From: Candidatus Moranbacteria bacterium GW2011_GWE2_35_2-
Lineage (GTDB): Bacteria > Patescibacteriota > Minisyncoccia > Moranbacterales > UBA9337
Assembly (NCBI GenBank): GCA_000990585.1
Contig: LBQD01000002.1
Location: 56,016-120,015, forward strand
Reading direction: 5' to 3'
Length of the DNA stretch: 64,000 bases
The position numbers and the translations under genes were made by a program. The notes under the pieces are model-generated. The model ran no database searches. It saw only the letters and a program-made list of their open reading frames with translations, and had not been told where the DNA came from. Positions 1,197 through 19,610 of the stretch are shown here, piece by piece. The stretch's first letter is position 1; each line of letters begins with the position of its first letter.

Positions 1197-1640
1197 CTTT
1201 ATATTATATCAAAACAAGAATATATTTTCTCTTTTTAAAATTATAACAGATTTTTAAAATTAAACAAAATTAAAATTTATAAATTTAATTATGTATTCTT
1301 ATGATAACTTTTTTAATAAAACAAACCCGGCTCAATAAGAGTATTTAATAGAAGAATTAATATATTTAATTTATTAGTATATATTATTAAGAGATGGTTT
1401 TGTGTTAATAAGTATATAAATATAAAGAGTAAAAAGAAAAAAAGCTGGAATAAGTTGTGGATAAAAGGTAAATAAAGTGAATAATAAACCGTGAGGATAA
1501 AAGTGTATAAATAAGGATAAAAGGAATATTATTATTTTTTTTTTAAAAAACAAATAAAATATTAACAAAAATAAAAATGGATATCCACAAGGATATTAAC
1601 AGTTAAACAAAGCATTTTAACAACTTATACACAGAAAAAC

Positions 1641-1668
1641 AAAAAACCTAGTTTAGACTAGGTTTTTT
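1641..1668. terminator. Bidirectional intrinsic terminator hairpin (cctagtttagactagg) flanked by an A-run and a T-run
   Basis: Perfect inverted repeat with AAAAAA upstream and TTTTTT downstream, sitting immediately 3' of the minus-strand LysM/CHAP gene. Confidence 0.6.
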
Positions 1669-1680
1669 GTGGGCAGTTTT

Positions 1681-2853
1681 TTAATAAATATAACCCTTGA
1701 TAACTCGATTGGAAGTAGAAATAGTTCGTGAGCTTTTTTTCCCCCAGCCTTTATAATTCATTTCTGAAACAGTAATTGTATTTTTTCCTACACTTTCCAC
1801 GATAGCAACATGTCCCCACCAAGATTCAGAAGAAACCATAATAGCTCCTTTTTCCGGTTTTTTTCCGGTTTTATATCCCATAATTTTTGCTTGATATAAC
1901 CATGTTCCAGCATTTCCACCCCATGGGATAAAACGCCTTTGTGCAACATACCATGTGCAATAGCCATAGGGAAATATGTGTCCAGTTCCAGCTTTTCCTT
2001 CTAATTTTTTCCATCCGGAAGTGGTTGGTGTTCCACCGGAAGGGGTTGCATATTGACGACGCTCTACAACAATAGTATTTGTGTTTTGATTTTGTGCGGG
2101 AATTTCTTTTTGTCCCCCGGGAATAACAATTTCTTGTTTTTCTTTTAATTCTCCATTGGCGGGTAAATCATTAAAAGAAATTATTTTATTTTTATCCGCT
2201 TCATATTCCTTAGCGATAGAGTCAATAGTATCTCCATTTTTTACAATATGAGTTAATCCAGCAATAGGAAGGATAAATATTTGATCTCCTGGCATAATTG
2301 AATCAATATCTTCAATATCATTTGCCCATAGGATTGTGTTGATGGTAATTTTATTTTTTTGAGCTATTGAACTTAATGTGTCGCCATCTTTTACGGTATA
2401 AATTTTAACGCCGCCATTTTCTTCTGGATCTTTGAGTGTCGGACTAGATTCAGCCATAAGAACTTGATCTTGAGCAGAAGATAGTAATTTGGATTCTTCT
2501 TCTTTAGGGTTTGGATTTATTGAAGTACTTGCCATTGCCAGAGGAACTAAAACAAGGTCGTTTTTGCGCATTTCTTGACCACTAAAGAGGGTTTTTGGAG
2601 TGGTGTTGGAATTATTATTTCTCCAATATCCAAACAGAAATCCTCCCGATTTTCCTTCTGCTGCCAGATTGGTGGATATTACTAAAACGGCACTGGAAAT
2701 CACAATCACTAGAGCAGAATAGTTTCGTAGCATATGAAGAATTGAAACAGTTCGATGTCTTTTGATGAAGTTAGCAATATTTTGTTGTTTTTTATATAAT
2801 TTTTCTTGTATTTTCTTTGAATGCAATCCTTTCAGTTGACTAAAAATAAACAA
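1681..2853 (-). CDS. Cell-wall hydrolase with two LysM repeats and a C-terminal CHAP (Cys/His amidohydrolase/peptidase) domain, plus an N-terminal TM anchor
   Basis: LysM-like segments (GDTLSSIAQKNKITINTILWANDI..., VKNGDTIDSIAKEYEADKNKIISFNDL...). CHAP signature with catalytic Cys in GYCTWYVAQRR and His in WWGHVAIVESV. Confidence 0.75.
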   Translation of the reverse strand: MFIFSQLKGLHSKKIQEKLYKKQQNIANFIKRHRTVSILHMLRNYSALVIVISSAVLVISTNLAAEGKSGGFLFGYWRNNNSNTTPKTLFSGQEMRKNDLVLVPLAMASTSINPNPKEEESKLLSSAQDQVLMAESSPTLKDPEENGGVKIYTVKDGDTLSSIAQKNKITINTILWANDIEDIDSIMPGDQIFILPIAGLTHIVKNGDTIDSIAKEYEADKNKIISFNDLPANGELKEKQEIVIPGGQKEIPAQNQNTNTIVVERRQYATPSGGTPTTSGWKKLEGKAGTGHIFPYGYCTWYVAQRRFIPWGGNAGTWLYQAKIMGYKTGKKPEKGAIMVSSESWWGHVAIVESVGKNTITVSEMNYKGWGKKSSRTISTSNRVIKGYIY

Positions 2854-3121
2854 TAGTTGCTTACTAATAGGTTTAATTCCTTCTATATGGTTTTATTGTT
2901 AGATTGTTTGACAACAGAAAATAACTCACAGTCAAATGAATCATCCAATAAAACCCTAATAATTATTCTTGCATTCAAGTATAATCAGATAATGCGTAAA
3001 TGTCAATAAAGAAAACGGAAGTTATTAACAGGTTAAAAAATAGCTTGTTAGGGCTATTTTTTAAAGGTTTTTTACTTTATAATTCAAATAAGATAAAATA
3101 AGTAAGAAGAATGTAAAAAAT

Positions 3122-4024
3122 ATGAAATTGGAAGATGTGCTTTTGGACTATTTGGAATATTTGGAAATTGAGCTTAATCGTTCCGAAAAAACAGTAGAAA
3201 ACTACCGGCATTATTTGGAACGTTTTTTTGCGTGGTCCAATATATGCCAGCCGAAACAAATTACTATGGAATTAGTAAGAAAATATAGGCTTTATCTTAA
3301 TCGTTTAGAGGATAAGAAGGGTAATACATTAAAAAGAATAACTCAAAATTATCATATTATTGCTTTGCGAAATTTTCTTAAATATTTGGCAAAAAAAGAT
3401 ATTTCTTCGCTTTCGGCGGAAAAATTGGAGGTGGGTAGGAATCCAGAGAGGGAAGTTGATTTTCTTTCGGGCGAAGAAATGAGTCGAATTCTCGGAGGTG
3501 CTTCTGGTGAGGATTTAAAAACACTCAGAGATCGCAGCATTTTAGAACTTTTGTTTTCGGCAGGACTTCGCGTAAGTGAGCTTGTAAGTGTTAATCGTGA
3601 TCAATTGAATCTTAAAACTCAAGAATTCAGTGTGCGCGGAAAAGGCTCGAAGGTGAGAATTGTATTTATTTCCGATACCGCTAAATTTTTTTTGCAAAAA
3701 TATTTAAATAAAAGAGTAGACATTGATCAAGCTTTGTTTATTCGAATTGTAAAAAATTGGCAAAATAAGGATGATCTGCGTTTAACTTCACGCAGTATTC
3801 AGCGAATAGTAAAATATTATGCACATAAAGCCGGGATTGTGAAAGATGTTCATCCACATACCCTGCGCCACAGTTTCGCGACTGATTTACTCAGCAACGG
3901 CGCGGATATTCGCTCCGTCCAAGCAATGCTCGGCCACTCCTCAATCACCACTACGCAGATTTATACACATGTTACTAACAAACAATTAAAAGATATCCAC
4001 AAGAAGTTTCATCGAAAGAAATAA
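3122..4024 (+). CDS. xerC: Tyrosine site-specific recombinase XerC/XerD family
   Basis: C-terminal catalytic region HTLRHSFATDLLSNGADIRSVQAMLGHSSITTTQIYTHV (R..H..R..Y motif pattern), with an N-terminal SAM-like core-binding domain. Confidence 0.85.
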   Translation: MKLEDVLLDYLEYLEIELNRSEKTVENYRHYLERFFAWSNICQPKQITMELVRKYRLYLNRLEDKKGNTLKRITQNYHIIALRNFLKYLAKKDISSLSAEKLEVGRNPEREVDFLSGEEMSRILGGASGEDLKTLRDRSILELLFSAGLRVSELVSVNRDQLNLKTQEFSVRGKGSKVRIVFISDTAKFFLQKYLNKRVDIDQALFIRIVKNWQNKDDLRLTSRSIQRIVKYYAHKAGIVKDVHPHTLRHSFATDLLSNGADIRSVQAMLGHSSITTTQIYTHVTNKQLKDIHKKFHRKK

Positions 4025-4100
4025 TTTTTGCATAATATTTTTTTAATTTATAAAAACAGGATATTCCTGTTTTTAGTTATTTAAAAGTCATTGTGTTAAA

Positions 4101-6341
4101 ATGGTAATTATGAATGAATTATTAAAAGAACTTAATTCGGCGCAAAGGGAGGCTGTTCAGGCGACAGAAGGCCCAGTTTTGGTTATTGCTGGGGCTGGAT
4201 CCGGGAAAACACGAGTATTGACTCATCGGGTGGCTTATTTGATTTCAGAAAAAGGTGTGAAGGCGCAAAACATTTTGGCGGTGACTTTTACCAACAAAGC
4301 AGCACAGGAAATGAAAGAGCGAATATCGCAGTTAATAACCAGCAATAATTTGCCAAATGTCGGTACTTTTCACAGTATTTGCGTAAAAATTTTGCGCCGG
4401 GAGATTGACAAATTGGGATACAAAAAGTCCTTTAATATTTTTGATGATCAAGATCAAAAGGTTTTGATGAAAAAAATTGTCAAGGAATTGGAAATTAACA
4501 CTGAACAATTTATTCCCAATTCATTTTTGGGAATAATTAGTAAGGCAAAAAACGAACTTAGAGATGAATATGTTTTTGAGTCTCAAATTGGAGGTTATTA
4601 TGAGGAAATTGTGGCAAAAGTGTATAAGAAATATCAAAAAGAACTTCGGGAAAATAATGCACTGGATTTTGATGATTTGATTCGACTGACAATCGAAATT
4701 TTTCAAAAATTTCCTGATATATTGGAAAAATACCAAAGACTTTTTCAATATATTTTGGTTGATGAGTATCAGGACACCAATCATGCTCAATATACTTTCG
4801 TGAGACTGCTTGCGCAAAAACATTGTAATTTGTGTGTTGTTGGGGATGATTGGCAGTCAATTTACGGTTGGCGACAAGCGGATATTCGTAATATTTTGAA
4901 TTTCGAAAAAGATTATCCGGAAGCAAAAGTGATTAAATTGGAACAAAATTATCGTAGTACACAGATAATTTTAGATGCCGCTTACGGAGTGATTTCTCAA
5001 AATGTCAATCGTAAGGATAAAAAAGTATGGACTGAGAATAAAGGCGGACATTTAATAACATCATTTGAGGCAGAGGATGAACGCGAAGAGGCGGAATATG
5101 TGGCTAACGAAATTAAAAATTTTATTAGTAATCCGCCAGTCGGCGGACAATTTTCAATCCGCCAGTCGGCGGACAATTTCCAAAAAAATTCAAATAATAA
5201 AATTCGAAACTTCAAGCATCAAGAGGTATATAATTATTCTTCTTTTGCGGTTCTTTATCGCACTAACGCGCAATCACGCGCTATCGAAGAATCTTTCTTA
5301 AGAAATAACATCCCTTATCGAATTATTGGCGGCTTGAAATTTTATCAAAGAAAAGAAATCAAAGATATGATTGCCTATTTGCGCTTGATTCAAAATGGCG
5401 CTGACTATATTTCTCTGGAAAGAGTAATTAATGAGCCCAAAAGAGGTATTGGAAAGGCGACTCTGAGTAAGTGGATCGCATATGCTAAAAAGAATGGAAA
5501 GAATTTCATTTCTGTTGGATTAAATCTTAATAAAGATTGCGGATTAAATGACAGTAAAATCGAATCGATTACAAAATTTTGTGAGTTTATCGAAAGAATG
5601 CGCGAATATAAAGGAAAAATAAAAATAGCTGATTTTATCGAGAAAGTATTTATTGAAAGCGGATATGAAAAAAGCTTGTCAAATTTGGGTAGCGATGGGG
5701 AAATAAGAATTGAAAATATTCGCGAATTATTAAGTGTAGCGGGAAAATACGGACAAGAATTAACCGAACAAATGTTGGAATTATTCTTAGAAGAAGTTGC
5801 TCTAGCTTCGGATACTGACAAAATTGAGCAGAGAGAAAATTCGGTACATTTAATGACGTTGCACAGCGCTAAGGGATTGGAATTTCCAGTAGTTTTTATT
5901 GTTGGACTGGAAGAAGGAATCTTGCCACATTCTCGCAGTATGCTCGGTGGAGAAGAAATGGAAGAAGAGCGACGCTTGATGTATGTGGGAATTACCAGGG
6001 CAATGCAGAGAGTTTATCTGATTTTTACACATATTCGTATGATTTTTGGATCAAATCAAGCCAATCCACCCTCTCGATTTCTTAATGATATACCAGCATA
6101 TCTTGTGAATAATAATCAAGATATAATAATTGACAGTAAAAAAAATAATCTTGAAAGTCAGGAAAATGATGATATTAAAAAACAACAATCCGTGGGCTAT
6201 AAAGATGGACAAAGAGTAAAGCACAAAGAATTTGGCGAAGGAGTGATCATCTCTATTAGTGGAGATACTGCAACGGTTGTTTTTCCGAAGCGAGGAATTA
6301 AAAGACTCCCTCTTTTAAGTACACCTTTATCGAAAATGTGA
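4101..6341 (+). CDS. uvrD: ATP-dependent DNA helicase UvrD/PcrA family (superfamily 1)
   Basis: Walker A AGAGSGKTRVLTHR, motif II VDEYQDTN, motif IV VLYRTNAQSR, motif VI LMTLHSAKGLEFPVVF. Carries an internal 26-bp tandem duplication at 5130-5181. Confidence 0.9.
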   Translation: MVIMNELLKELNSAQREAVQATEGPVLVIAGAGSGKTRVLTHRVAYLISEKGVKAQNILAVTFTNKAAQEMKERISQLITSNNLPNVGTFHSICVKILRREIDKLGYKKSFNIFDDQDQKVLMKKIVKELEINTEQFIPNSFLGIISKAKNELRDEYVFESQIGGYYEEIVAKVYKKYQKELRENNALDFDDLIRLTIEIFQKFPDILEKYQRLFQYILVDEYQDTNHAQYTFVRLLAQKHCNLCVVGDDWQSIYGWRQADIRNILNFEKDYPEAKVIKLEQNYRSTQIILDAAYGVISQNVNRKDKKVWTENKGGHLITSFEAEDEREEAEYVANEIKNFISNPPVGGQFSIRQSADNFQKNSNNKIRNFKHQEVYNYSSFAVLYRTNAQSRAIEESFLRNNIPYRIIGGLKFYQRKEIKDMIAYLRLIQNGADYISLERVINEPKRGIGKATLSKWIAYAKKNGKNFISVGLNLNKDCGLNDSKIESITKFCEFIERMREYKGKIKIADFIEKVFIESGYEKSLSNLGSDGEIRIENIRELLSVAGKYGQELTEQMLELFLEEVALASDTDKIEQRENSVHLMTLHSAKGLEFPVVFIVGLEEGILPHSRSMLGGEEMEEERRLMYVGITRAMQRVYLIFTHIRMIFGSNQANPPSRFLNDIPAYLVNNNQDIIIDSKKNNLESQENDDIKKQQSVGYKDGQRVKHKEFGEGVIISISGDTATVVFPKRGIKRLPLLSTPLSKM

Positions 6342-6407
6342 ACAACTTAAAAAATCGCTATACGTAGAGGTTTTTGAAATGTGTATTGAAAACTTAGATC
6401 AAATAGG

Positions 6408-6845
6408 TCAAATAGTTTTGGACATCTCGATAATTCCTTGCATCTTGAATCCTTGTTTTTCCCAAAAATCTTTCGCCATAGATTGACGATGAGAGATGAG
6501 ATGAAAATTTTTTATGTCCTTATTTCGTGCAATTTTTTCAGTTTCACGAAAAAGTGCTGTTCCTACTCCATTTTTTCTTAAAGACGGGTCAACTACTATA
6601 TATTCGATGATTAAATGATTCCCGTCTTCCCATGGTTGGATTCGAGAAAAAATAAAACCAATATTTTTTTCATCTTCAGTTGCGATAAAGCAAAATCCTT
6701 TTCCGTTATTGAAAATTTCCACTAATTCTCCTTTTGCAGTTTCCTGATTCCATTTTTCATTATATGGAGCGTTTGTCATTACCTCCAAAAAAAGATTAAT
6801 GATACTATTTATGTCTTTATCGGTTTCAATTTTTTTGATTTGCAT
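6408..6845 (-). CDS. GNAT family N-acetyltransferase
   Basis: Acetyl-CoA binding motif region IVVDPSLRKNGVGTALF (R/Q-x-x-G-x-G/A); size 145 aa. Confidence 0.7.
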   Translation of the reverse strand: MQIKKIETDKDINSIINLFLEVMTNAPYNEKWNQETAKGELVEIFNNGKGFCFIATEDEKNIGFIFSRIQPWEDGNHLIIEYIVVDPSLRKNGVGTALFRETEKIARNKDIKNFHLISHRQSMAKDFWEKQGFKMQGIIEMSKTI

Positions 6846-7012
6846 AAGGTTTTTTAGTAAGCTTAGTAAATAATGATTATATTATAGCACAAATATAGAT
6901 AGCTTATGATATTATAAAATAAAAATAACAATATGTCAAGTATGCTTGGTATTTTTTACTCCCCCTCCCGAGCTATTTTTAATGCAAGTGTGATTATTAA
7001 AATAAACCATTA

Positions 7013-7714
7013 TTGTTCCACGTGGAACAATAATTACACAAAAACAATTTCTCGGAGTCATTTTTTATACTTGAATAGTTTAAATACAGATAAATGCTTA
7101 TTTTTATTAAATAAGAGGGTTAATTAATCTGAAAATATTTTAAAATTTTCTGCTATTTTTAGTATTATAGGTATTTCTGTTTAATTAATTGTTCCACGTG
7201 GAACAATATTGAAAATTACGCATTCGTATAGTAGCAGTATTTTTTTAAAAAACAATTGAGCCTCTTAGAATTTAATTGTTCCACGTGGAACAAGTTCAAT
7301 TCCGTTATAATTTTTCACGGAAAAATGAAAAATATTAATTTGTTAAGTAAAAAATAAAGCTGTTTATTTATATTTAATAAAAAAGCTTATTTTTTAATGT
7401 AAAAAACATTTAATATAGGAGTGGTAATAAATAAGAAGTTATTGTTCCACGTGGAACAATTTATAATAACAATATTTACAAAAAACAAACCTTATTGTAA
7501 ATATCTGTGTTGGTATGATAAAAATTAAATAATGTTAATTAGTTTAATATGCAATAATTCACTTTTTTCGGCCTAATGAATGTTTTTTAAATTTATAAAA
7601 TAAATTATTTTTTGTTTATAAATTTACAAAAGAGATTTTTTTGATAATAATTACGAGGCATATTTATAATTTAATATATTTTTTACTTCTATTGGATTGT
7701 TCCACGTGGAACAA
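7013..7714. repeat. Five dispersed perfect copies of the 18-bp palindrome TTGTTCCACGTGGAACAA (7013-7030, 7189-7206, 7276-7293, 7442-7459, 7697-7714) inside a ~1.1-kb AT-rich non-coding region
   Basis: Exact repeats read directly from the sequence. Spacers are irregular (86-254 bp) and not conserved, so this is not CRISPR-like. Confidence 0.9.
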
Positions 7715-7755
7715 TTTTTTAGAAAAATATTTTTTTAAAAATGAGATGAAAAAGG

Positions 7756-7825
7756 TTGATAACTTTTAGAAATATTTTAAATAAAGGGTTTTTGTTGATA
7801 AAAACTGTGGATAACTTGTGGAATA
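7756..7825. promoter_or_regulatory. Cluster of DnaA-box-like 9-mers (perfect TGTGGATAA at 7806-7814; near-matches at 7756-7764 and 7817-7825)
   Basis: Matches the reverse complement of the consensus TTATCCACA, adjacent to AT-rich DNA and the palindrome array. Confidence 0.4.
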
Positions 7826-7836
7826 AAATATTATAT

Positions 7837-7865
7837 TTGACAAAATGTATAATATATATTATAAT
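7837..7865 (+). promoter_or_regulatory. Sigma70-like promoter (TTGACA, 17-bp spacer, TATAAT) upstream of tRNA-Ala
   Basis: Consensus -35 at 7837-7842 and -10 at 7860-7865 with 17-bp spacing. Confidence 0.35.
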
Positions 7866-7967
7866 ATAAAGAAATAGATACCACAACGGATAAATCAAAA
7901 AAGTGTTTTTTGAATTTTTTGTTGACGGTTTGCTTTAATTTGTTTATGATTGATTTGCTGAAAATAA

Positions 7968-8040
7968 GGGCCATTAGCTCAATTGGTAGAGCGCTTCCAT
8001 GGCATGGAAGAGGTAGCCGGTTCGAATCCGGCATGGTCCA
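7968..8040 (+). tRNA. tRNA-Ala (anticodon GGC)
   Basis: Hand-folded cloverleaf: acceptor GGGCCAT with G3:U70 Ala identity pair; anticodon loop AT-GGC-AT; T-arm GGTTCGAATCC. Confidence 0.8.
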
Positions 8041-8159
8041 CTGCATTTAAAATAAGTTTAATTTTTTTTTATGCAGCGGCCACTCTTTGTGGTTTTTTGT
8101 TTATTTAAAACTATGATTGTGGTATTGTATAAAGAGGCGGTGCATAATTTTTTTGGTAA

Positions 8160-8231
8160 GCTCTCGTAGTTCAGTGGATAGAACAAGGGACTCCTAAGCC
8201 TTAGACGCAGGTTCAACTCCTGCCGAGAGCA
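8160..8231 (+). tRNA. tRNA-Arg (anticodon CCT)
   Basis: Acceptor GCTCTCG/CGAGAGC; D-stem GTTC/GAAC; anticodon loop CT-CCT-AA; T-arm GCAGG TTCAACT CCTGC. Confidence 0.7.
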
Positions 8232-8243
8232 CTGTTTAATTTT

Positions 8244-9743
8244 ATGATTAAAAAAATTCCAAAACAAGTAGTTGAGGTGTTGGAAAAAATTAAAAATGCT
8301 GGATTTGAGGCATATGTTGTCGGTGGATGTGTGCGTGATTTGATTATGGATAGGCTACCTAAGGATTGGGATGTGGCGACTAACGCTAAGCCGGAAGAAA
8401 TTCTAGCTATTTTCGGAGAGGAAAACGCTTTTTATGAGAATGATTTCGGAACAGTGGGAGTAAAAATCAGGAATCAAGAATCAGGAATCAAGAATCAAGA
8501 AGAAAAGAAAGAAATTGTGGAGGTGACGACCTATCGAATTGAAAGTAAATATTCCGATCGGAGAAGACCGGACGAGGTGAAATTCGCCAAAACGCTGGAA
8601 GAAGATTTGAGTCGGCGGGATTTTACGGTAAATGCGATTGCCCTGCGAGTTACGGACTTCACAAAATTGCAAACGGGAGCGGATGGATATGAAATTATTG
8701 ATTTATTCGGAGGACGGAAAGATATTAAAGATAGGATTATTCGAGCGGTAGGTGATGCAAGTAAAAGATTTGATGAGGATGCTCTGCGGATGATGCGGGC
8801 GGTGCGCTTCCACGCGCAATTGGGGTTTGATATTGAGAAAAAAACTTTCAAAGCGATCAAAGAAAACGCTTTTTTAATGAAACATATTTCCGCGGAAAGA
8901 ATAAAAGATGAATTTTCTAAAATAATTTTGTCAAGTAATCCGGCGGAAGGAGTGGATATGCTTCACGAAATCGGGCTTTTGAATTTTGTGATTCCGGAAT
9001 TGGAAAATGGGGTGAATGTGGGACAAAACCGCCATCATATCCATACGATATACAAACATAATTTGCTGGCGCTCAAGTTTTGTCCGTCGGAAAAATTGGA
9101 AGTGCGTCTGGCGGCGCTACTTCACGACATCGCCAAACCTCAAACCAAAAGAGGCGAGGGGTATTATTCAACTTTCTATAATCACGACCATGTGGGCGCG
9201 CGCGTGGCAAAAAAGATTTTGCAGCGGCTCAAGTTTTCCAATGAAATCATCAACAAAGTTGTGCTGTTAGTGGATAACCACATGTTTTATTACAATCCTG
9301 AAGAAGTCGGGGAGGCTTCAGTGCGCCGTTTGATTCGCAAAGTAGGATTGGAAAATATGAAAGATTTAATGGATGTGCGGATCGCCGACCGACTGGGAAG
9401 CGGAACACCGAAAGCTAAACCATACAAATTGCGCCATTTGGAATATTTAATCGACAAGGTTTCCAAAGATGCGGTATCGGTAAAAATGCTGAAAATCGGC
9501 GGCAATGATCTGATCAATGAATTGAAACTTGCCCCCGGTCCGAAAATCGGAGCGATTCTGGATGTACTTTTGGCAGAGGTGATTGAAGACGCAAAAAAGA
9601 ATAATCACCAGTATTTGCTCAAAAAAGCGACGGAACTTGACAAGGAAGATCTGTCAAAATTGCGGGAGATGGCAAAAGAAAAAATAGAAGAGAAAAAAGA
9701 GGAGGATGATAAAGAGTTGAAGGGGAGGCATTGGGTGAAATGA
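8244..9743 (+). CDS. cca: CCA-adding enzyme / tRNA nucleotidyltransferase (polymerase beta superfamily head plus HD domain)
   Basis: GGCVRDLIMDRLPKDWDVAT and RDFTVNAIA nucleotidyltransferase motifs; HD motif LLHDIAKP. Low-complexity insert coded by (CAGGAATCAAGAAT) repeats at 8468-8500. Confidence 0.85.
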   Translation: MIKKIPKQVVEVLEKIKNAGFEAYVVGGCVRDLIMDRLPKDWDVATNAKPEEILAIFGEENAFYENDFGTVGVKIRNQESGIKNQEEKKEIVEVTTYRIESKYSDRRRPDEVKFAKTLEEDLSRRDFTVNAIALRVTDFTKLQTGADGYEIIDLFGGRKDIKDRIIRAVGDASKRFDEDALRMMRAVRFHAQLGFDIEKKTFKAIKENAFLMKHISAERIKDEFSKIILSSNPAEGVDMLHEIGLLNFVIPELENGVNVGQNRHHIHTIYKHNLLALKFCPSEKLEVRLAALLHDIAKPQTKRGEGYYSTFYNHDHVGARVAKKILQRLKFSNEIINKVVLLVDNHMFYYNPEEVGEASVRRLIRKVGLENMKDLMDVRIADRLGSGTPKAKPYKLRHLEYLIDKVSKDAVSVKMLKIGGNDLINELKLAPGPKIGAILDVLLAEVIEDAKKNNHQYLLKKATELDKEDLSKLREMAKEKIEEKKEEDDKELKGRHWVK

Positions 9744-11857: not shown

Positions 11858-11889
11858 GTCTTGTTGAAAAATAAAAAAACAAACAGAAT

Positions 11890-11985
11890 AATGAAAATGC
11901 TTTTGAAAAAATATTTTGGGTTTGAGGAGTTTCGGCCTTTGCAGGGGGAGATTATTTCCAATACGTTGGCAGGGAGGGTGATCTT
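11890..11985 (+). pseudogene. Duplicated 5' fragment of recQ (about 95 bp, ~90% identical to 13409-13503)
   Basis: Encodes [29 protein letters not shown] versus authentic Rec[30 protein letters not shown]. It then diverges and terminates. Confidence 0.8.
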
Positions 11986-12042: not shown

Positions 12043-12642
12043 ATGTTAAATTATACTAAAATTATGTCGAAAATGGCTAAAAAACTGAATATTTTACATC
12101 AAAGCGGGCAAACGGTTTTTTCTACCAATGAGCTGATGCTACATTGGAGTATCGAAAATAAAAAGATTTTGTATACTCAAATTTCCCGCGCCAAAGAGCA
12201 AGGTTTTTTGAGAACAATCCAGCGAGGTTTGTATGCTCTGGATGGTTTGGAAGTTGACAGACTGGAGTTGGCGGGAAACCTGAAAAAAAAATCGTACATA
12301 AGTTTTGAAACTGTCCTGGCAAAAAACGGATTAATCAACCAGTGGTACGGTTCATATTTTTTGGCATCGGACAGGGAAGCGGATATTGAAAATGAGTATG
12401 GAAAATTCAATTACAGAAAACTGTCTGAAAAGATTTTGAATAATCGTTTGGGGATAATCGATAGCGGTCATTATTTTACAGCTGGCACCGAAAGAGCTAT
12501 CTGCGATTATTTTTACAAAGTCGGCTTTCAACAGCTTGATGACTTGGAGGAAATCGACCAAAACAAGCTTATTGAAATATCTAAAATTTATCACAATAAA
12601 AGGTTGGAAAAAGATATTTTAAAATTAACTAAATTGTTATGA
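12043..12642 (+). CDS. Putative AbiEi-like antitoxin / transcriptional regulator, partner of the nucleotidyltransferase below
   Basis: 199-aa ORF whose stop overlaps the start of the AbiEii-like gene (ATGA overlap). Position and size fit type IV TA antitoxins; no strong motif recognised. Confidence 0.45.
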   Translation: MLNYTKIMSKMAKKLNILHQSGQTVFSTNELMLHWSIENKKILYTQISRAKEQGFLRTIQRGLYALDGLEVDRLELAGNLKKKSYISFETVLAKNGLINQWYGSYFLASDREADIENEYGKFNYRKLSEKILNNRLGIIDSGHYFTAGTERAICDYFYKVGFQQLDDLEEIDQNKLIEISKIYHNKRLEKDILKLTKLL

Positions 12643-13355
12643 AATTGGACAAAAGCGAACACAGAAGAATAATGCTAAAAATATTGGGAGATATTTCAGC
12701 CGATCCTCTCCTGGCCAATAATCTTGGTTTTAAAGGCGGCACTGCCTGTTATTTTTTGCATGGTTTGGATCGATTTTCAGTCGATCTTGATTTTGATTTG
12801 CTAGACAAAGAAAGGGAAGAGGAAATAAAAAAACGTCTTTTGGAAATTTTGAGTAAATATGGGTCAATCAAAACAAAAACTGCTATTAAGGTCAGGTATT
12901 CCGATGATTGTCAGGCTTTGAAAATAGATCTTTCAAACAGATATGAAAACAACAAGCGGAATAAATATCAAGTCAAGGATATAGTCTCGGGAATATCCTT
13001 GAAAGTTTTGCGCAAAGAAGATATTTTTGCCCATAAATTGGTGGCGCTCACTGACAGGAGCGCTTCCGGTCAAAGTGGCACTGCTTTTATCGCAAATCGC
13101 GATTTGTATGATATTTATTTTTTCTTCAAAAACGGATGGCATTATAACAAAGAAATTATTGAGTATCAAACAAATAAAAAAGTTAAAGATTATTTGGGAT
13201 ATGCCTCTAAGTTTATAGAAAAATATTCCAACGAGTCGAATATTTTGGACAGACTCGGAGATTTGGTGGATGATGAAAAAAAAGATTGGGTTAAAAAAAA
13301 TCTGAAAAGCGAAATATTGAAACAGTTGGCGATAGAAGTTAAATCATTGGATTAA
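12639..13355 (+). CDS. AbiEii/DUF1814-family nucleotidyltransferase toxin (type IV TA / abortive infection)
   Basis: Signature LGFKGGTACYFLHGLDRFSVDLDFDLLD matches the conserved GGTAL...RFSxDLDF motif of AbiEii nucleotidyltransferases. Confidence 0.7.
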   Translation: MKLDKSEHRRIMLKILGDISADPLLANNLGFKGGTACYFLHGLDRFSVDLDFDLLDKEREEEIKKRLLEILSKYGSIKTKTAIKVRYSDDCQALKIDLSNRYENNKRNKYQVKDIVSGISLKVLRKEDIFAHKLVALTDRSASGQSGTAFIANRDLYDIYFFFKNGWHYNKEIIEYQTNKKVKDYLGYASKFIEKYSNESNILDRLGDLVDDEKKDWVKKNLKSEILKQLAIEVKSLD

Positions 13356-13408
13356 GATATTTTCGGATTTATGTAGGATAACTTACCAGACAAATAATTT
13401 TACAAAAA

Positions 13409-15571
13409 ATGAAAACACTTTTGAAAAAATATTTCGGGTTTGAGGAGTTTCGGCCTTTGCAGGAGGAGATTATTTCCAATATTCTGGCGGGGAGGGACAC
13501 TTTTGTTTTGATGCCTACCGGCGGAGGAAAATCTCTTTGCTATCAGCTTCCCGCGCTCAAATTTCCCGGAATCACGATCGTGATTTCTCCTTTGATCGCC
13601 CTGATGAAAGACCAGGTTGATTCGCTGAAGGCCAACGGTGTGGCGGCGGAATTTTTGAATTCTTCGCTTTCTGTCGGGGAAATCGGGAAAATAAAAGATG
13701 AAGCGCAGAAGGGAAAGGTCAAAATTCTTTACATTGCTCCGGAACGTATGGCGATGCGGGATTTCGAGGATTTTCTGATCGGACTGAAACCCAGTTTGAT
13801 CGCGGTGGACGAAGCGCATTGTATTTCGGAGTGGGGACATGATTTCCGTCCGGATTATCGCAATCTTCGAAGGCTCAAGGATATTTTTCCCGGCGTGCCG
13901 ATTGTGGCGCTTACCGCGACGGCAACGGAAAAGGTACGAGAAGATATTTTGAGTCAGCTCAATTTCCGAAACCACAAAACATTCATTTCCAGTTTCAATC
14001 GGGAAAATTTGTTCTTTCGCGTGGTGGAAAAAAGAAACGCTTTTCCTAAATTATTGAAATTATTGGAAAACCGCAAGAAGGACTCCGTGATAATTTATTG
14101 TTTTTCCAGGAAAGATACGGAAAAAGTGGCCGCTGATTTGCGGGCGGAAGGTTTTTCGGCGTTGGCATACCATGCCGGATTGGATTCAGCGAAGCGGAAA
14201 AAGGCGCAGGAGGCGTTTATTCGCGATAAGGCGAATATTATCGTAGCGACAATCGCTTTCGGAATGGGAATTGACAAACCGAATGTCCGCTTGGTGGTGC
14301 ATTATACTTTTCCCAAATCACTGGAAGGATATTATCAAGAAGTCGGGCGCGCGGGACGGGATGGACTTCCGGCGGAATGCGTGATGTTTTACACCTATGC
14401 CGATGCGCGTAAGCACCAATATTTCCTAAACGACATTTCCGATGAGAAATTACGCGCTCAAACGGAGAAAAAACTGCAAGAAGTGATGGATTATGCCGAT
14501 TTGGAATTTTGCCGGAGGCGGCATCTTCTTTCCTACTTTGGTGAAAAATATGAAAAGGAAAATTGTGGCGCATGCGACGCGTGTCTTTCGGATAAAAAAG
14601 AAAAAGAAATGTTTGACGCGACAATTGTGGCGCAAAAGATTCTTTCCGCCATCGTCCGAACCGGACAAAGATTCGGCGCGGGATATATTGTTGACATATT
14701 GAAAGGAAAAAATATCAAGGCGATACGGGATAGAAAACACGACAAACTTTCGGTTTTCGGCATTGTTTCCGATTTTTCAGCCGATCAACTTCGGGAAATA
14801 ACTCGTTCGCTTGTCGGAATGGGATTGGTTGAAAAAGCGTCCGGGGAATATCCTGTTTTGCAATTGACACCCCGAGGCAAGAAATTTTTAAACGACAAGG
14901 AGAAGTTGGAATTGCCGAAACCGAAAGAGGAGGAGATTTTTGATGACAGCTTCAAGGTTGAGGATGATTTTAAATATGACGGACAATTGTTTGAAAAATT
15001 GCGCTCGCTTCGGCGGGAGATTGCCAATAACTTGAACGTTCCGCCATTTGTGGTTTTTTCTGATGTATCGTTGCGGGAAATGGCGTATTATTTTCCCTCA
15101 AATGAAACCGATTTTTTGCGGATTGCGGGTGTGGGGGAATTGAAGCTCAAAAATTTTGGAAAAAAGTTTTTGCAGGAAATAAACCGGTATGCAAAAGAAA
15201 AAAACATTGCGCCCAAAGAATTTTCTTCTATTAGCGAGAAAAAAATAAAAGTGAAAAAAGAAATCGGAAGTGTTTCCGGTGGAACTTTTCGAATTACGCG
15301 GGAATTCTTGAAAAAGAAAATTTCACTAGCTGAAATTGCCAAAGAGCGTCACTTGACCGAAGGAACGATTATTTCACATATTGAAAAAATAATCAATTCC
15401 GGAGAAAAATTGGATATTGACTATTTAAAACCGGAAAAAGAAATTTTTAAAGAAGTCAAAAAAGCTTTTGAGAAATGCGGAACGGGCGCCTTAAGTCCGG
15501 TATACAGGCAACTAAATGGAAAATATGATTACGATATGATTCGGCTGGTAAGGGTGTTTTTGGAAAAATAA
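13409..15571 (+). CDS. recQ: ATP-dependent DNA helicase RecQ
   Basis: Walker [18 protein letters not shown]; DEAH box [20 protein letters not shown]; Zn-binding [12 protein letters not shown]...CGACDAC; C-terminal HRDC-like region. Confidence 0.9.
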
Positions 15572-15640: not shown

Positions 15641-16006
15641 CTAGTGTAATTTAGATAAGGTACACTCTAATTCATTTAGGAATATCGGTTTTTGTACGCA
15701 GAGTATTTTGTGTTGTTTGGAAAAATTCAAACATTCCTCTGAGATATAGCCAGTGATAAGAATAATTTTTTTTTCAATTCCCGGATTGTCTTTCATTGCT
15801 AATCTGCAGACCTCCAGCCCGTTCATAGCAGGCATTCCGACATCTAGGATGATGGCGTGAAAATTTTCAAGTTTTATTTTTAACAATGCTAAATTTCCTT
15901 CAGACACAGTGATTACTTCCCATTTTTTTCCGAAAAAAGTTTTAAATATTTCCAAAATTGTTATTTCATCATCAACTACTAAAATTTTTTTCTTTTTATT
16001 TAATAT
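15641..16006 (-). CDS. Single-domain response regulator (CheY-like receiver)
   Basis: Receiver motifs KKKKILVVDDE and ILDVGMPAMNGLEV. The ORF finder began at an internal TTG (15955). The upstream extension holds the DD pocket and a perfect AAGGAG RBS (16013-16018), but the only available initiator is a non-canonical ATA at 16004-16006. Confidence 0.6.
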   Translation of the reverse strand: MLNKKKKILVVDDEITILEIFKTFFGKKWEVITVSEGNLALLKIKLENFHAIILDVGMPAMNGLEVCRLAMKDNPGIEKKIILITGYISEECLNFSKQHKILCVQKPIFLNELECTLSKLH

Positions 16007-16186
16007 TTTCTTCTCCTTTTTAAGGAACTATTTGAAAACCCCTCATCATTTCTTTGTTAATTACTACGAAAAAGATATTTTAAAATTTCCCGATTATTTT
16101 TTGCTGAAATATTTCATTTGTGTATATTAAGAAATAAAAAATATTTTCGAAAAATCGTCACCTTTGCCGAAGAACAAAACATCGAC

Positions 16187-16258
16187 ATGATCCTCGAAAC
16201 CGAACACGAAAAAGTCATGGCCGACATCGCCCTCCTAAAATCCTTTCGCGGGAAATAA
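16187..16258 (+). repeat. Repeat copy A: a gene 3'-end fragment (…ILETEHEKVMADIALLKSFRGK*) followed by a hairpin; paralogous to 18975-19046
   Basis: About 75 bp, ~88% identical to the second copy; both end with TAA and a GC hairpin. Confidence 0.7.
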
Positions 16259-16308
16259 AAAAGCAGGGGCTATATTAAGCTCCCTGCTGATTTATTTATT
16301 AACCTTGA

Positions 16309-16836
16309 TTATCGTTGATTATTAATATGCTTACCACTAAGCAATCCCTCCATTAAGCCCTTCCAGTTTTTTATTAATTTTTCGTCCTCCACAATTAATG
16401 CATTGTAGCATTCCGGATAAATCATTACATCGCCCACAGTAAAAGGGGCGCCATTAGAAGATCCCATCCAAAGATCAAATGCTTTGCCAATAGCATCTTG
16501 ATGATGATTTGCATCTGTAATGATTCCAATTTTCTTTACTCCATACTGCAATGCTTTTAATACAATTACGAGACCAGTGGCTGCTTCAACGCAAACTTCT
16601 TCATCATGAGGCGAAGGAAGATTTATATCGGTTAATACAATATCAAATTCTGCAAGATTCATGCTTGGTTTGTCATGCCAACAATCACGAAATGTCTCAA
16701 AGAAATCAATGAAACTTTCCATAATAGTTAGGTCATGATCTGATAACTGCTTTCTTGCAGCTTCTTGATGAATAGGATTGTCTTCGATAATTAAAATTTT
16801 CATAGCAACCTCCTTCTCAGTTTTTATTAATAACAT
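16309..16836 (-). CDS. Hypothetical protein with a degenerate receiver-like N-terminus
   Basis: MKILIIEDNP... start resembles a REC domain and FDIVLTDINLP resembles the phospho-acceptor region, but the rest is not a canonical REC. It overlaps the upstream 68-aa ORF by 20 nt, so they are probably in one operon. Confidence 0.4.
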   Translation of the reverse strand: MLLIKTEKEVAMKILIIEDNPIHQEAARKQLSDHDLTIMESFIDFFETFRDCWHDKPSMNLAEFDIVLTDINLPSPHDEEVCVEAATGLVIVLKALQYGVKKIGIITDANHHQDAIGKAFDLWMGSSNGAPFTVGDVMIYPECYNALIVEDEKLIKNWKGLMEGLLSGKHINNQR

Positions 16837-17023
16837 CTATGGCCCTTGCCTGAACTTCTTCATCAAGCTCGCTTATTTTGAAAAACAACTCATTCTCCAT
16901 GCCAAGATAAATAGATTGAATAACCTTATCCATAATTGCAAATACACATTTGCAATTATAAATTTCTCTCCCAGTATCATTAGCAGAAAACAACCTCATT
17001 ATAAATTGCCTCTTCTCTGTCAT
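16817..17023 (-). CDS. Small hypothetical protein
   Basis: 68-aa ORF, first gene of the minus-strand operon that runs divergently from the TrmB-like regulator. Confidence 0.3.
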   Translation of the reverse strand: MTEKRQFIMRLFSANDTGREIYNCKCVFAIMDKVIQSIYLGMENELFFKISELDEEVQARAIDVINKN

Positions 17024-17208
17024 AGCAAATCTCCTTGCGTTTTAAGCCTGCTTACTGTTTAATTGTTAAAAAACTTCCTAAGTTATATTAAGATTTTTAT
17101 CTTAACAAGCTATTATATTCCCAAATCAACAAAATGTCAATAATTCCGTGTGTTTTATTGATATATTCATAATATTGCCTTAAAATAAACCTTATTGCAC
17201 TCTAAATA

Positions 17209-18069
17209 TTGACAATTTTATCGTTGTTTGTTAAGATGGCAGTAAATATGAGCCTAGAAAAAGACCTACAATCTATCGGCCTGGAAGAAAAAGAAGCCAA
17301 AATATACTTGGCCGCTCTTGAGCTTGGGTCGACCAATATCCAAGATCTGGCCGAAAAGGCGGACATCAAGCGCAGTACGGTCTATGAGATTTTGAAAAAA
17401 CTTGAGCCGATGGGTCTGATTACCGAATCCATCAAGGGTAAAAGGAAAACATACATCGCTTCCGGACCGGAAAAACTCAAAAAAAATATCAAAGAAAAAG
17501 AACAACTCATAAATCATATCCTTCCCGAGCTAAAATCTTTAAACAACACCGGAAATATAAAACCTAAGATAACTTATTACGAAGGCCGAGACGGACTCCG
17601 ACAAATTTATAATCTAGCGCTCGAAACCACCACTAAAAAAGTTGACTGGGTTTCGCCTATTCGGGCAGTCATGGACACGGTGGGTGAAAAGTTTCTAGAA
17701 GAATATATCGAAAAAAGAGCCAAGGAAAAATATTGGATCCGATCTATCCAAATCACTGAGCAACAAGTCGACACATACAAATATTTGGACCCAACAACTT
17801 TTGACAAAACCTACCGCCGCGTAAAATTTTCTCCGCCTGGCATCGATATTCCCAACACTATGGCTATTTGGGATAACAAAGTAGCTGTTATTAGCACCCG
17901 AAAAGAAGGATTTGGCTTCATCATTGAAAGCACTGACTATACCCGCTCCATGAAAGTTTTCTACGATCTCCTTTGGAACATCAGCAAATCCTGGGGCAAC
18001 ATGGATTTCAACAACAAAAACCCGCAAAATTCCGAGTTGACTGAAAAAGATGATACTTATTGGAAATAA
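17209..18069 (+). CDS. TrmB-family HTH transcriptional regulator (paralog 2 of 3)
   Basis: N-terminal wHTH LEEKEAKIYLAALELGSTNIQDLAEKADIKRSTVYEILKKLEPMGLI. C-terminal region ends in FYDLLWN, like the other paralogs. Confidence 0.65.
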   Translation: MTILSLFVKMAVNMSLEKDLQSIGLEEKEAKIYLAALELGSTNIQDLAEKADIKRSTVYEILKKLEPMGLITESIKGKRKTYIASGPEKLKKNIKEKEQLINHILPELKSLNNTGNIKPKITYYEGRDGLRQIYNLALETTTKKVDWVSPIRAVMDTVGEKFLEEYIEKRAKEKYWIRSIQITEQQVDTYKYLDPTTFDKTYRRVKFSPPGIDIPNTMAIWDNKVAVISTRKEGFGFIIESTDYTRSMKVFYDLLWNISKSWGNMDFNNKNPQNSELTEKDDTYWK

Positions 18070-18132
18070 AAAAAACCTTCTCCCATCTCAATTTACCCAA
18101 CATAACCAATCCCAATCTTTAAAAAATAATCA

Positions 18133-18168
18133 TTTAGTCAATTATATGCATATGCACAATATTGACTA
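18133..18168. repeat. 36-bp imperfect palindrome (ttagtcaattatatgcatatgcacaatattgactaa), upstream copy
   Basis: Internal dyad TTAGTCAAT/ATTGACTAA around TATGCATATGCA. A second copy (~80% identical) sits at 18888-18923, so the two flank gene 18234..18851. Confidence 0.75.
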
Positions 18169-18233
18169 ATATATCATTCGTAGCTATTATCATATTGCAT
18201 TTAACTTACTATATGCCAATCAAAAAATAAACT

Positions 18234-18851
18234 ATGCGAAAACCCTCCTTTTCAAAAAAATCACAGAATCTGCTTGAAAACTTCATCGAATCCGACACCT
18301 TCACTGCCACTGCCGGCAAATTTTTATTAATGACCTTAGCGTTAGGTGGAATTGTTTTTGCCGGAGCACTTGCTCCCGGCATCCTGCTGGCCACAAAAAA
18401 GAAAAAGCATTTTCATAAATACAATCCCAAACAGCTTCAAAATGCTATCTATAATCTCAAGAAGAGAAATCTAATTGAAATCATTCAAGAGGGTAACACC
18501 AAAACAAAAGTCCGTCTCACTAACAAGGGCAATGAGCGAGTCCGCGAATTTTGTTTTGAGACATTGAGGATAACCAAACCGAAGCGCTGGGACAAAAAAT
18601 GGCGGATTCTGATCTTTGATATACCCACCAGCCCTAAGATATATAACCAGGCACGCAATGCATTGCGAGAAAAAATAAAAAAACTGGGTTTCTACCAGAT
18701 GCAAAAAAGCGTTTGGGTCTGCCCCTATGAATGCGAGGATGAGATTCTTTTTGTCGCCGAAGCCTTTAGTGTTCAAAAATATATCGAGATTATCACCGCT
18801 GAAAAACTTCTGCATGAAAATTACCTCAAGAAAAAATTCAACTTAAACTAA
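18234..18851 (+). CDS. Hypothetical protein with an N-terminal TM segment, a winged-helix-like region and a C-terminal PaaX-like region (tentative)
   Basis: TM FLLMTLALGGIVFAGALAPGILLA; wHTH-like NLKKRNLIEIIQEGNTKTKVRLTNKG; C-terminal WRILIFDIPTSPK...LGFYQMQKSVWVCPYE resembles PaaX_C / Cas2-like folds. Assignment is by resemblance only. Confidence 0.35.
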   Translation: MRKPSFSKKSQNLLENFIESDTFTATAGKFLLMTLALGGIVFAGALAPGILLATKKKKHFHKYNPKQLQNAIYNLKKRNLIEIIQEGNTKTKVRLTNKGNERVREFCFETLRITKPKRWDKKWRILIFDIPTSPKIYNQARNALREKIKKLGFYQMQKSVWVCPYECEDEILFVAEAFSVQKYIEIITAEKLLHENYLKKKFNLN

Positions 18852-18887
18852 AGTTCACTAAATTAAATATCATTCCTATCCACCAAT

Positions 18888-18923
18888 TAGTCAGATATGT
18901 GCATATGCATAAAATTGACCAAC
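18888..18923. repeat. 36-bp imperfect palindrome, downstream copy (ttagtcagatatgtgcatatgcataaaattgaccaa)
   Basis: Paralogous to 18133-18168. Confidence 0.75.
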
Positions 18924-18974
18924 AAGTTAACTTTGATGATGTACAACTACTATCATTTTTGTTAACAATTTTGC

Positions 18975-19046
18975 ATCCTCGAAACCGAACACGGAAAAGT
19001 CATGGTTAACATCACTCTCCTAAAATCCTTTCGCGGGAAATAAAAA
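18975..19046 (+). repeat. Repeat copy B: the same gene 3'-end fragment (…ILETEHGKVMVNITLLKSFRGK*) followed by a hairpin
   Basis: Aligns with 16187-16258. Its open frame is only 24 codons, so it is a remnant. Confidence 0.7.
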
Positions 19047-19158
19047 AGGTGGAGAACTGCGATGAGTTTTCCACCTTCTAGTAATCTCGATGAGAGAGGC
19101 AAGAAAGTTAGATTCAACTTTCTTGCCCAAACCACAATCACCTCTATTTTTAATCACC

Positions 19159-19440
19159 TTATTCAAATTTTATTCCTAATTGAACAAGCTTATTTCTTGC
19201 CGACTCCAGTATTTTTGTGGATTTCGTTAAATATAAGTGTGCGTTATTAGCTCTTTCTTGAGAACATTTTAACTCATATTCTAATCCACACAGACCATCA
19301 GCTTGTTGCTGCAGGCGCCCTTCCAATCTTTCTAATCTATATTCAAAATATTTTTTATCGCGTTCAACTTTACTTCTAGCCATCTCGAATTCATCTATTA
19401 AGGACTTAATTTCACTAAAAAATAATCTTGGTCTTAGCAT
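19159..19440 (-). CDS. Hypothetical coiled-coil protein
   Basis: 93-aa ORF rich in heptad-like E/K/R/L pattern (RLERLEGRLQQQADGL...). Confidence 0.35.
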   Translation of the reverse strand: MLRPRLFFSEIKSLIDEFEMARSKVERDKKYFEYRLERLEGRLQQQADGLCGLEYELKCSQERANNAHLYLTKSTKILESARNKLVQLGIKFE

Positions 19441-19610
19441 TGTTTTGCTCCTGTAGTTGAGGTGATTTTAAAGGAACTGCTTGTCATGATTCTTTTCCTG
19501 TTCTCATCATAACTCTATAGTATAGCACCATTTGGACACTATTTCAATAGTTTACTTGATATTTTAGTAATTCTGTGCTAAACTTGATATATAAGTATAA
19601 GATTTAAAAA

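Follow-up and report, generated by a model that had tools for sequence, protein, structure and literature searches.

In the ParABS-SMC system, ParB clamps that carry cytidine triphosphate (CTP) load at parS sites, spread, and recruit SMC. The parS sites of Pseudomonas aeruginosa are spread over roughly 15 kb, in or near genes. Those of Bacillus subtilis are single sites that are scattered over the origin-proximal chromosome, with one located inside spo0J, and the arrays of Myxococcus xanthus, Corynebacterium glutamicum, and Streptomyces adjoin parAB and span tens of kilobases. Here, we analyzed a 64-kb stretch of DNA from Candidatus Moranbacteria bacterium GW2011_GWE2_35_2-, which belongs to the candidate phyla radiation (CPR). 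This stretch is referred to as the window, and our focus was a noncoding gap (positions 6846 to 7967) that contained five perfect copies of the 18-bp palindrome TTGTTCCACGTGGAACAA. Our results suggested that the five palindromes are very probably chromosomal parS sites and that they would jointly constitute the chromosomal centromere of this Candidatus Moranbacteria bacterium. The evidence consisted of the parS sequence identity of the palindromes, their confinement to one locus within the DNA scanned, the parS-type context of the same sequence elsewhere, the origin-type signals located nearby, and syntenic arrays in related genomes.

The P. aeruginosa sites parS2/parS3 and the parS of Pseudomonas putida have the same 16-bp palindrome as the core of the window's 18-mer, and the Pseudomonas sites, like those in the window, are clustered close to the known or probable oriC. 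The core, TGTTCCACGTGGAACA, is the P. putida parS sequence and is listed in the P. aeruginosa literature as the perfect palindrome parS2/parS3. Four origin-proximal sites are described for P. aeruginosa, only two of which are perfect palindromes; the window contained five perfect palindromes within 700 bp of noncoding DNA. Unlike in P. aeruginosa, no parAB gene was found in the neighborhood of the array. The B. subtilis parS sites, which are recognized by Spo0J, belong to the same motif family and differ from the window's sequence by one base, but the window contained a single tight array. As in M. xanthus, C. glutamicum, and Streptomyces, many near-identical parS copies appeared to lie near the origin; however, the array in the window spanned only 0.7 kb, and at least 8 kb leftward and 56 kb rightward of it were free of parAB. 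A parS array near an origin is a known kind of element. What was unusual here was how dense the array was, that it was noncoding and flanked by divergent consensus promoters, and that the arrays of relatives were embedded in a gene.

Sequence and identity of the palindromes

A motif scan of the window located exact copies of TTGTTCCACGTGGAACAA with starts at 7013, 7189, 7276, 7442, and 7697, and no sixth match was found even when three mismatches were allowed (0.03 matches were expected). None of 100 shuffled sequences reached five copies. The 8.3 kb to the left of the window contained no site either, even with mismatches, which brought the scanned DNA to 72 kb. The initial annotation had raised the question of whether the 18-mer was confined to one locus, and over these 72 kb no copy was found outside positions 7013 to 7714. 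The start-to-start spacings were 176, 87, 166, and 255 bp, and the only flanks that were common to the five copies were A and T nucleotides (A-T-TGTT...AACA-A-T). The spacers were unique and mutually unrelated, which ruled out a repeat unit longer than the palindrome. Thus, five perfect palindromes with irregular, nonconserved spacers were indeed present, and the suggestion that they were protein-binding sites under strong selection was supported. We concluded that the palindrome array is a real, strongly selected element.

In all five copies, the 16-bp core was identical at 16 of 16 positions to P. aeruginosa parS2/parS3. It differed by one base from the M. xanthus consensus (TGTTCCACGTGGAACG, with 22 sites in that species), and the general parS consensus, which is also that of the B. 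subtilis sites, is tGTTNCACGTGAAACa. The publications that we found to contain the 16-mer all concerned parS or ParB. When one genome per bacterial species was scanned for the exact 18-mer, matches were obtained in at least 120 genomes, which represented more than 10 phyla; the phyla among the matches listed were Bacteroidota, Acidobacteriota, Verrucomicrobiota, Pseudomonadota, Bacillota, Nitrospirota, Planctomycetota, Myxococcota, Bdellovibrionota, and CPR.

To characterize neighboring genes, all open reading frames (ORFs) of the 8-kb loci around these matches were clustered all-against-all, and the names of the clusters were confirmed via Pfam. Among the 120 loci listed, the most frequent neighbors were GidA/MnmG (60 loci), YbeY (25), ParA (21), ParB with ParB_N and HTH_ParB domains (19), and MnmE (17), followed by RecF (14), DnaN (13), GyrB (12), GidB (11), and YidC (9). 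At least one of gidA, gidB, parA, parB, mnmE, recF, dnaN, gyrB, or yidC was located within 8 kb in 90 of the 120 listed loci. This origin-gene context is the signature of parS.

The initial annotation had suggested that each palindrome could be a pair of head-to-head DnaA-like sites. We rejected this idea: the half-site TGTTCCACG matched the DnaA box TTATCCACA at six of nine positions and mismatched it at three, whereas the core matched parS at every position and had a parS-type context across phyla.

The exact 18-mer was also present in at least 120 viral contigs of the IMG/VR database (L218 to L337). Among the 120 contigs listed, a ParB gene was located nearby in two and Wzy_C, a membrane protein discussed below, in none; two contigs (L271 and L337) had five sites each. 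These contigs may be phages or phage-plasmids that borrow the ParB of their host; alternatively, they may be pieces of host DNA. In a groundwater metagenome-assembled genome labelled Bacteroidetes, the array took a tandem-repeat form, with seven parS sites that recurred with an exact 99-bp period (L052:5202-5810).

A candidate replication origin to the left of the gap

DnaA-box clusters were scored in 200-bp segments over the 72 kb and compared to 60 simulated sequences, which had a maximum score of 7.0 and a mean of 4.6. The strongest cluster (segment 1448 to 1647, score of 11.5) was located in a 484-bp intergenic region at 1197 to 1680, where one perfect and three 1-mismatch boxes occurred in 170 bp. 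Part of this region (1197 to 1445) was only 15% GC and was a putative unwinding region. The second cluster (segment 3809 to 4008) scored 8.0, and the third, which was in the gap (segment 7639 to 7838), scored 7.5. The three best clusters of the 72 kb were all within 1448 to 7838, and all three perfect DnaA boxes fell between 119 and 7814.

The cumulative GC-skew minimum was at about 1100 to 2016. Per-gene skew was used to distinguish transcription effects from replication effects, and the mean was +0.209 for plus-strand genes (n = 29) and -0.017 for those minus-strand genes (n = 14) that lay right of the 3-kb position. On the minus strand, the ORF at 3 to 1196 had a skew of -0.317, and the 8.3 kb to its left had a skew of -0.276; the next minus-strand gene, at 1681 to 2853, had a skew of -0.022. 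The difference between these two neighbors on the same strand indicated that the replication-strand component flips within 1197 to 1680. In this intergenic region, the DnaA-box cluster, the AT-rich DNA, and the skew switch coincided. We have moderate confidence that it is oriC, the most likely position of which would then be 5.4 kb to the left of the parS gap. Within the 72 kb analyzed, the array was this same distance away from the switch in skew and from the top-scoring group of DnaA boxes, which supported the link to a replication origin in the initial annotation insofar as the locus was origin proximal.

In its DnaA-box cluster, 15% GC DNA, and skew switch, the region at 1197 to 1680 resembled bacterial oriC regions, and the gap had a small cluster. 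No dnaA or dnaN gene was adjacent to this putative origin; such adjacency is common at oriC, although it is not obligatory. No Bac_DnaA or DNA_pol3_beta domain was found in window ORFs of at least 300 amino acids, tblastn found no DnaN, and the flanks yielded neither. The initial annotation had proposed that dnaA and dnaN be located, and neither gene turned up in the window or its flanks.

The first alternative to be considered was that the 1.1-kb gap itself is the origin, as the initial annotation proposed, or that it is one of the two parts of a bipartite origin; the boxes at 7755 to 7826, and perhaps the half-sites of the palindromes as well, would then be bound by DnaA, which would open the AT-rich DNA. 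The gap was the largest and among the most AT-rich of the intergenic regions (21.7% GC), parS sites are normally close to oriC, and the perfect DnaA box that had been described there was confirmed: TGTGGATAA started at 7806, with same-orientation near-matches at 7755 (GGTTGATAA), 7793 (TGTTGATAA), and 7818 (TGTGGAATA). The score of this cluster slightly exceeded the simulated maximum, and the three best clusters were located within 6.4 kb of each other. However, the cluster at 1448 to 1647 was much stronger and was in more AT-rich DNA (15 to 19% GC), and both genes that flank the gap region showed right-arm skew. The weak match of the half-sites to the DnaA box relative to parS and the lack of a nearby dnaA or dnaN gene also argued against an origin in the gap. 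Because both the switch in skew and the top-scoring group of DnaA boxes mapped to 1197 to 1680, the origin is probably outside the gap, and we consider an origin in the gap unlikely. The DnaA-box cluster at 7755 to 7826 is real but secondary, and it is statistically marginal. The boxes abutted the tRNA promoter, a location that would fit a regulatory role too. Since the cluster sits directly upstream of that promoter, it may be an auxiliary origin element, a DnaA-regulated promoter, or a product of chance.

Arrays in related CPR genomes

Dense arrays of 4 to 12 sites within 0.8 to 1.5 kb were found in other CPR genomes. Specifically, four sites were located within 1.4 kb in L012, 10 within 1.5 kb in L032, 10 within 0.8 kb in L038, and six within 1 kb in L085. 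In the case of L032, L038, and L085, the sites were inside a long, intact ORF for a membrane protein of the Wzy_C/O-antigen-ligase family. The palindrome of these relatives was translated in all three frames, which yielded the peptides FHVE(Q), CSTWN, and VPRGT. When the Wzy_C ORF was used as a protein query, 1,255 homologues were recovered, and 112 of the best 120 (P0012 to P0131) had palindrome peptides, a figure that is biased because the search collects proteins by shared words and the query carries those peptides. Among the best 120, the median was about six peptides per protein and the maximum was 13.

We examined five related 21-kb loci, and in each of them every site was within a single gene. 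The order in these five contexts was CCA-adding enzyme (minus strand), zero to three genes, Wzy_C (plus strand) with every parS site, small genes, GyrA (minus strand), and MBL (minus strand). In these related Moranbacteria and Parcubacteria, the array comprised 5 to 12 sites and was carried by an intact Wzy_C gene located between cca and gyrA. In one of the five contexts, PcrA, LysM-CHAP, and XerC genes were beside Wzy_C, and this trio adjoined the parS gene in L216. The arrays of relatives were thus near gyrA, PcrA, XerC, and LysM-CHAP genes, and they occupied a position equivalent to that of the gap in the window, facing the 5' end of the CCA-enzyme gene. In the window, PcrA, XerC, and LysM genes were on the other side of the gap. 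An inversion of the CCA-Wzy_C block would be consistent with this gene order.

A decayed Wzy_C gene in the gap was considered and rejected. A hidden Markov model built from 120 homologues yielded no hit when compared to the six-frame translation of the window (the best E value, 0.47, was elsewhere in the window), and tblastn matched only palindrome-derived peptides. In 80 PcrA-anchored loci from related CPR genomes (1.04 Mb), which came from metagenomes scanned for gaps orthologous to that of the window, no parS site was found at one mismatch or fewer, which indicated that the motif is rare and locus specific and that synteny with PcrA is not conserved at 43 to 64% identity.

A tentative proposal, which we rate as possible, is that the centromere of Moranbacteria/Parcubacteria is normally gene embedded, with about 5 to 13 parS sites in frame in a Wzy_C gene between cca and gyrA, and that the noncoding array in the window is the same centromere, moved by inversion and outliving its host ORF. 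If so, it would be the DNA sites, rather than the peptides that they encode, that are under selection. In the literature searched, we found no description of a parS array inside a Wzy_C gene.

Several other features of these loci were observed. In L208 (10428-10464 and 11520-11556; protein P0014), some parS copies had a GC-rich hairpin (about 21 bp; TGTTCCAC-CCGCCTCATCGGCGGACAAA-CGTGGAACA) inserted at their center, and these split copies were read in frame (e.g., MFHA...RVEQ). Other GC-rich repeat peptides, PLSFIRRGAGGEV and HPNLLLIKEKE, recurred in the same Wzy_C genes. A tRNA-Ala(GGC) gene adjoined parS in three CPR genomes of different classes, namely, in the window, in L012 (160-236), and in L063 (1673-1748). 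Downstream, L012 also resembled the window in having a TrmB-like gene and an AbiEi/AbiEii pair.

The arrays of relatives were also relevant to the idea that the palindromes are operators of a local TrmB- or AsnC-type regulator that controls the two divergent promoters. Perfect palindromes between divergent perfect promoters would suit such a role, and TrmB-family genes were present within about 3 kb of the arrays in six of the eight CPR loci examined. However, TrmB paralogues are abundant (three in the window), and their adjacency to the arrays was accounted for by conserved synteny with the CCA-enzyme gene; TrmB-like regulators were therefore rejected as the palindrome-binding protein. In addition, the two -35 boxes were 74 bp and 123 bp away from the site nearest to each, five sites over 700 bp is not an operator layout, and the sites of relatives were in a coding region rather than in promoters. 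Given that the identical sequence is a ParB site in unrelated phyla, where it has an origin-gene context, an operator function seems very improbable.

The least credible alternative was that the palindrome represents a small repeat, either mobile or self-propagating and similar to a miniature inverted-repeat transposable element or a Rickettsia palindromic element, that accumulated here without a segregation function: copies in all three frames of an intact Wzy_C gene, some of them split by hairpin inserts, do resemble Rickettsia palindromic elements, and the 18-mer occurred in viral contigs mostly without a nearby ParB gene, but dispersal would be expected, and all copies in the DNA examined were in one locus (in relatives, one gene) per genome, the unit was only a 16- to 20-bp palindrome with no conserved flanks or target duplications, its sequence was exactly that of the ParB recognition site, and the array in the window, unlike Rickettsia palindromic elements, was noncoding and had no Wzy_C remnant.

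If the palindromes are parS sites, the gap would be a dense ParB-loading centromere near the origin, with ParB binding, clamp loading, and a role in segregation predicted for this organism by analogy. The mechanism is taken, by homology, from the well-studied ParABS system. A ParB dimer would read each 16-bp palindrome via its helix-turn-helix domain, bind CTP, close into a clamp, and slide to flanking DNA. Five loading sites within 700 bp could then produce a large, high-occupancy ParB-DNA partition complex beside the origin, and the placement of the array between two strong divergent promoters would keep it in a transcription-free zone. ParA would move the ParB-DNA complex, the complex would load SMC condensin, and newly replicated origin regions would separate.

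Several results weighed against the proposal of an origin-proximal ParB-loading centromere. Neither Pfam nor tblastn identified a ParB or ParA gene in the window or its flanks, a search that covered the window, the 8 kb left of it, and, on its right side, about 10 kb (strain contig L122, Pfam listing). ParB and ParA, as well as DnaA, were also absent within 10 kb of the arrays in the five related contexts. In 1.36 Mb of CPR DNA, no ParB or ParA gene was found, and no protein-database search aimed at ParB was made. In the literature searched, neither ParB nor parS was described for CPR bacteria; an article about Peregrinibacteria refers to no more than "short repeats" close to the origin. In L132, YidC-Jag was followed by glycosyltransferases and not by parAB. 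Because no ParB gene was located in the DNA examined, the presence of ParB in this genome is assumed, and if these lineages lack ParB, some other protein must read parS. As for the origin, its assignment was based on 72 kb of a genome of roughly 0.8 Mb, and a local skew anomaly was present at 16 to 20 kb. The plus-strand genes at 16000 to 20000 had negative GC skew, opposite to that of the remaining right arm, and this segment may be a recent inversion or may have been acquired.

The chromosome biology of CPR bacteria is essentially unstudied, and, in an uncultivated, ultra-small member of this group, the locus would provide a centromere along with a candidate origin. Our analysis also corrects a plausible but wrong reading of the palindromes as DnaA sites. 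Analyses of replication rate (peak-to-trough) could use the putative parS array and origin as landmarks, as could future genetic tools, for example, stable vectors with a native parS. The comparison with relatives suggested that centromeres of CPR genomes have an unusually high density and often lie within a coding gene. A gene-embedded centromere would, if confirmed, be a new arrangement in bacteria and a natural test of dual coding constraints.

Surroundings of the gap

The initial annotation described an unusually large AT-rich gap, a consensus sigma-70 promoter that fed two tRNA genes, and xerC and uvrD genes just upstream, and all of these features were found. The gap was 1,122 bp long and was the largest intergenic region of the window; the next largest was 484 bp. 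It was bounded by a GNAT gene on the left and a tRNA-Ala(GGC) gene on the right. Two perfect sigma-70 promoters flanked the array, and both fired outwards. They formed an inverted repeat (I3), and the right promoter read into the genes for tRNA-Ala, tRNA-Arg, and the CCA-adding enzyme. The coordinates of these and other features are shown in Table 1. No structured RNA was found in the gap, as the only Rfam matches were the two tRNAs. Over the first 12 kb of the window, all strain contigs that were compared showed 99.96 to 100% identity, which made a cross-strain comparison of the gap uninformative.

Table 1. Positions of putative parS sites, DnaA-box clusters, promoters, and genes in the window and of Wzy_C genes in related loci (window coordinates unless a locus is named)
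Feature	Position	Strand	Description
Putative parS-1	7014..7029	.	16-bp palindrome TGTTCCACGTGGAACA, exact match; 18-mer at 7013-7030
Putative parS-2	7190..7205	.	Exact match
Putative parS-3	7277..7292	.	Exact match
Putative parS-4	7443..7458	.	Exact match
Putative parS-5	7698..7713	.	Exact match
Best oriC candidate	1197..1680	.	484-bp intergenic region, 19% GC; DnaA boxes at 1456 (perfect), 1492, 1581, and 1625; three GGATAAAAG repeats
DnaA-box cluster	3817..4001	+	Four same-orientation 1-mismatch boxes, 3' end of xerC-like gene
Minor DnaA-box cluster	7755..7826	-	All in TGTGGATAA orientation; one perfect, one 1-mismatch, two 2-mismatch; abuts -35 of tRNA promoter
Sigma-70 promoter, TTGACA-17-TATAAT	6911..6939	-	Consensus 12/12; into GNAT gene; left boundary of array
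Sigma-70 promoter, TTGACA-17-TATAAT	7837..7865	+	Consensus 12/12; right boundary of array
XerC-like integrase	3122-4024	+	Pfam
UvrD/PcrA (KKP70881.1)	4101-6341	+	Pfam
GNAT acetyltransferase gene	6408..6845	-	Pfam; left neighbor of gap
tRNA-Ala(GGC)	7968..8041	+	ARAGORN, Rfam
tRNA-Arg(CCT)	8160..8232	+	ARAGORN, Rfam
CCA-adding enzyme/poly(A) polymerase family gene (KKP70883.1)	8244..9743	+	Pfam, synteny
Genes in 16-20 kb skew anomaly	TrmB-like 17209-18069; PaaX/Cas2-like 18234-18851; double AsnC-type HTH 19611-20657	+	
Wzy_C genes carrying parS sites	L032:6189-8000, L038:6840-8000, L085:6675-8000	-	
Wzy_C genes carrying parS sites	L208:10001-11881, L212:10001-11827, L215:10001-11653, L217:10001-11164		

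To the left of the gap, the locus consisted, in order, of type IV secretion system (T4SS)-like genes (minus strand), the 484-bp intergenic region, LysM-CHAP (minus strand), XerC-like (plus strand), PcrA (plus strand), and GNAT (minus strand) genes. To the right, the two tRNA genes were followed by the CCA-enzyme gene (plus strand), TrmB, AbiEi/AbiEii, and RecQ, with GyrA further on at 23 to 25.6 kb.

A minus-strand T4SS-like cluster was located directly to the left of the putative origin in L001 (1-8753, which corresponds to about -5900 to 2853 in the window) and in L125 (11658-21173). The cluster contained a TraC-like protein, a DUF87/TraG P-loop ATPase, and several large unknown proteins, and it ended with a LysM-CHAP peptidoglycan hydrolase beside a XerC-like integrase.

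Finally, a 92-bp direct repeat with 90% identity was present at 11887 to 11978 and 13405 to 13496. The second copy was the 5' end of recQ (13409 to 15571), and the first was a duplicated recQ start upstream of the AbiEi/AbiEii toxin-antitoxin pair (12043 to 13355). Thus, the AbiEi/AbiEii cassette looked like an insertion into the 5' region of recQ that was accompanied by a duplication.

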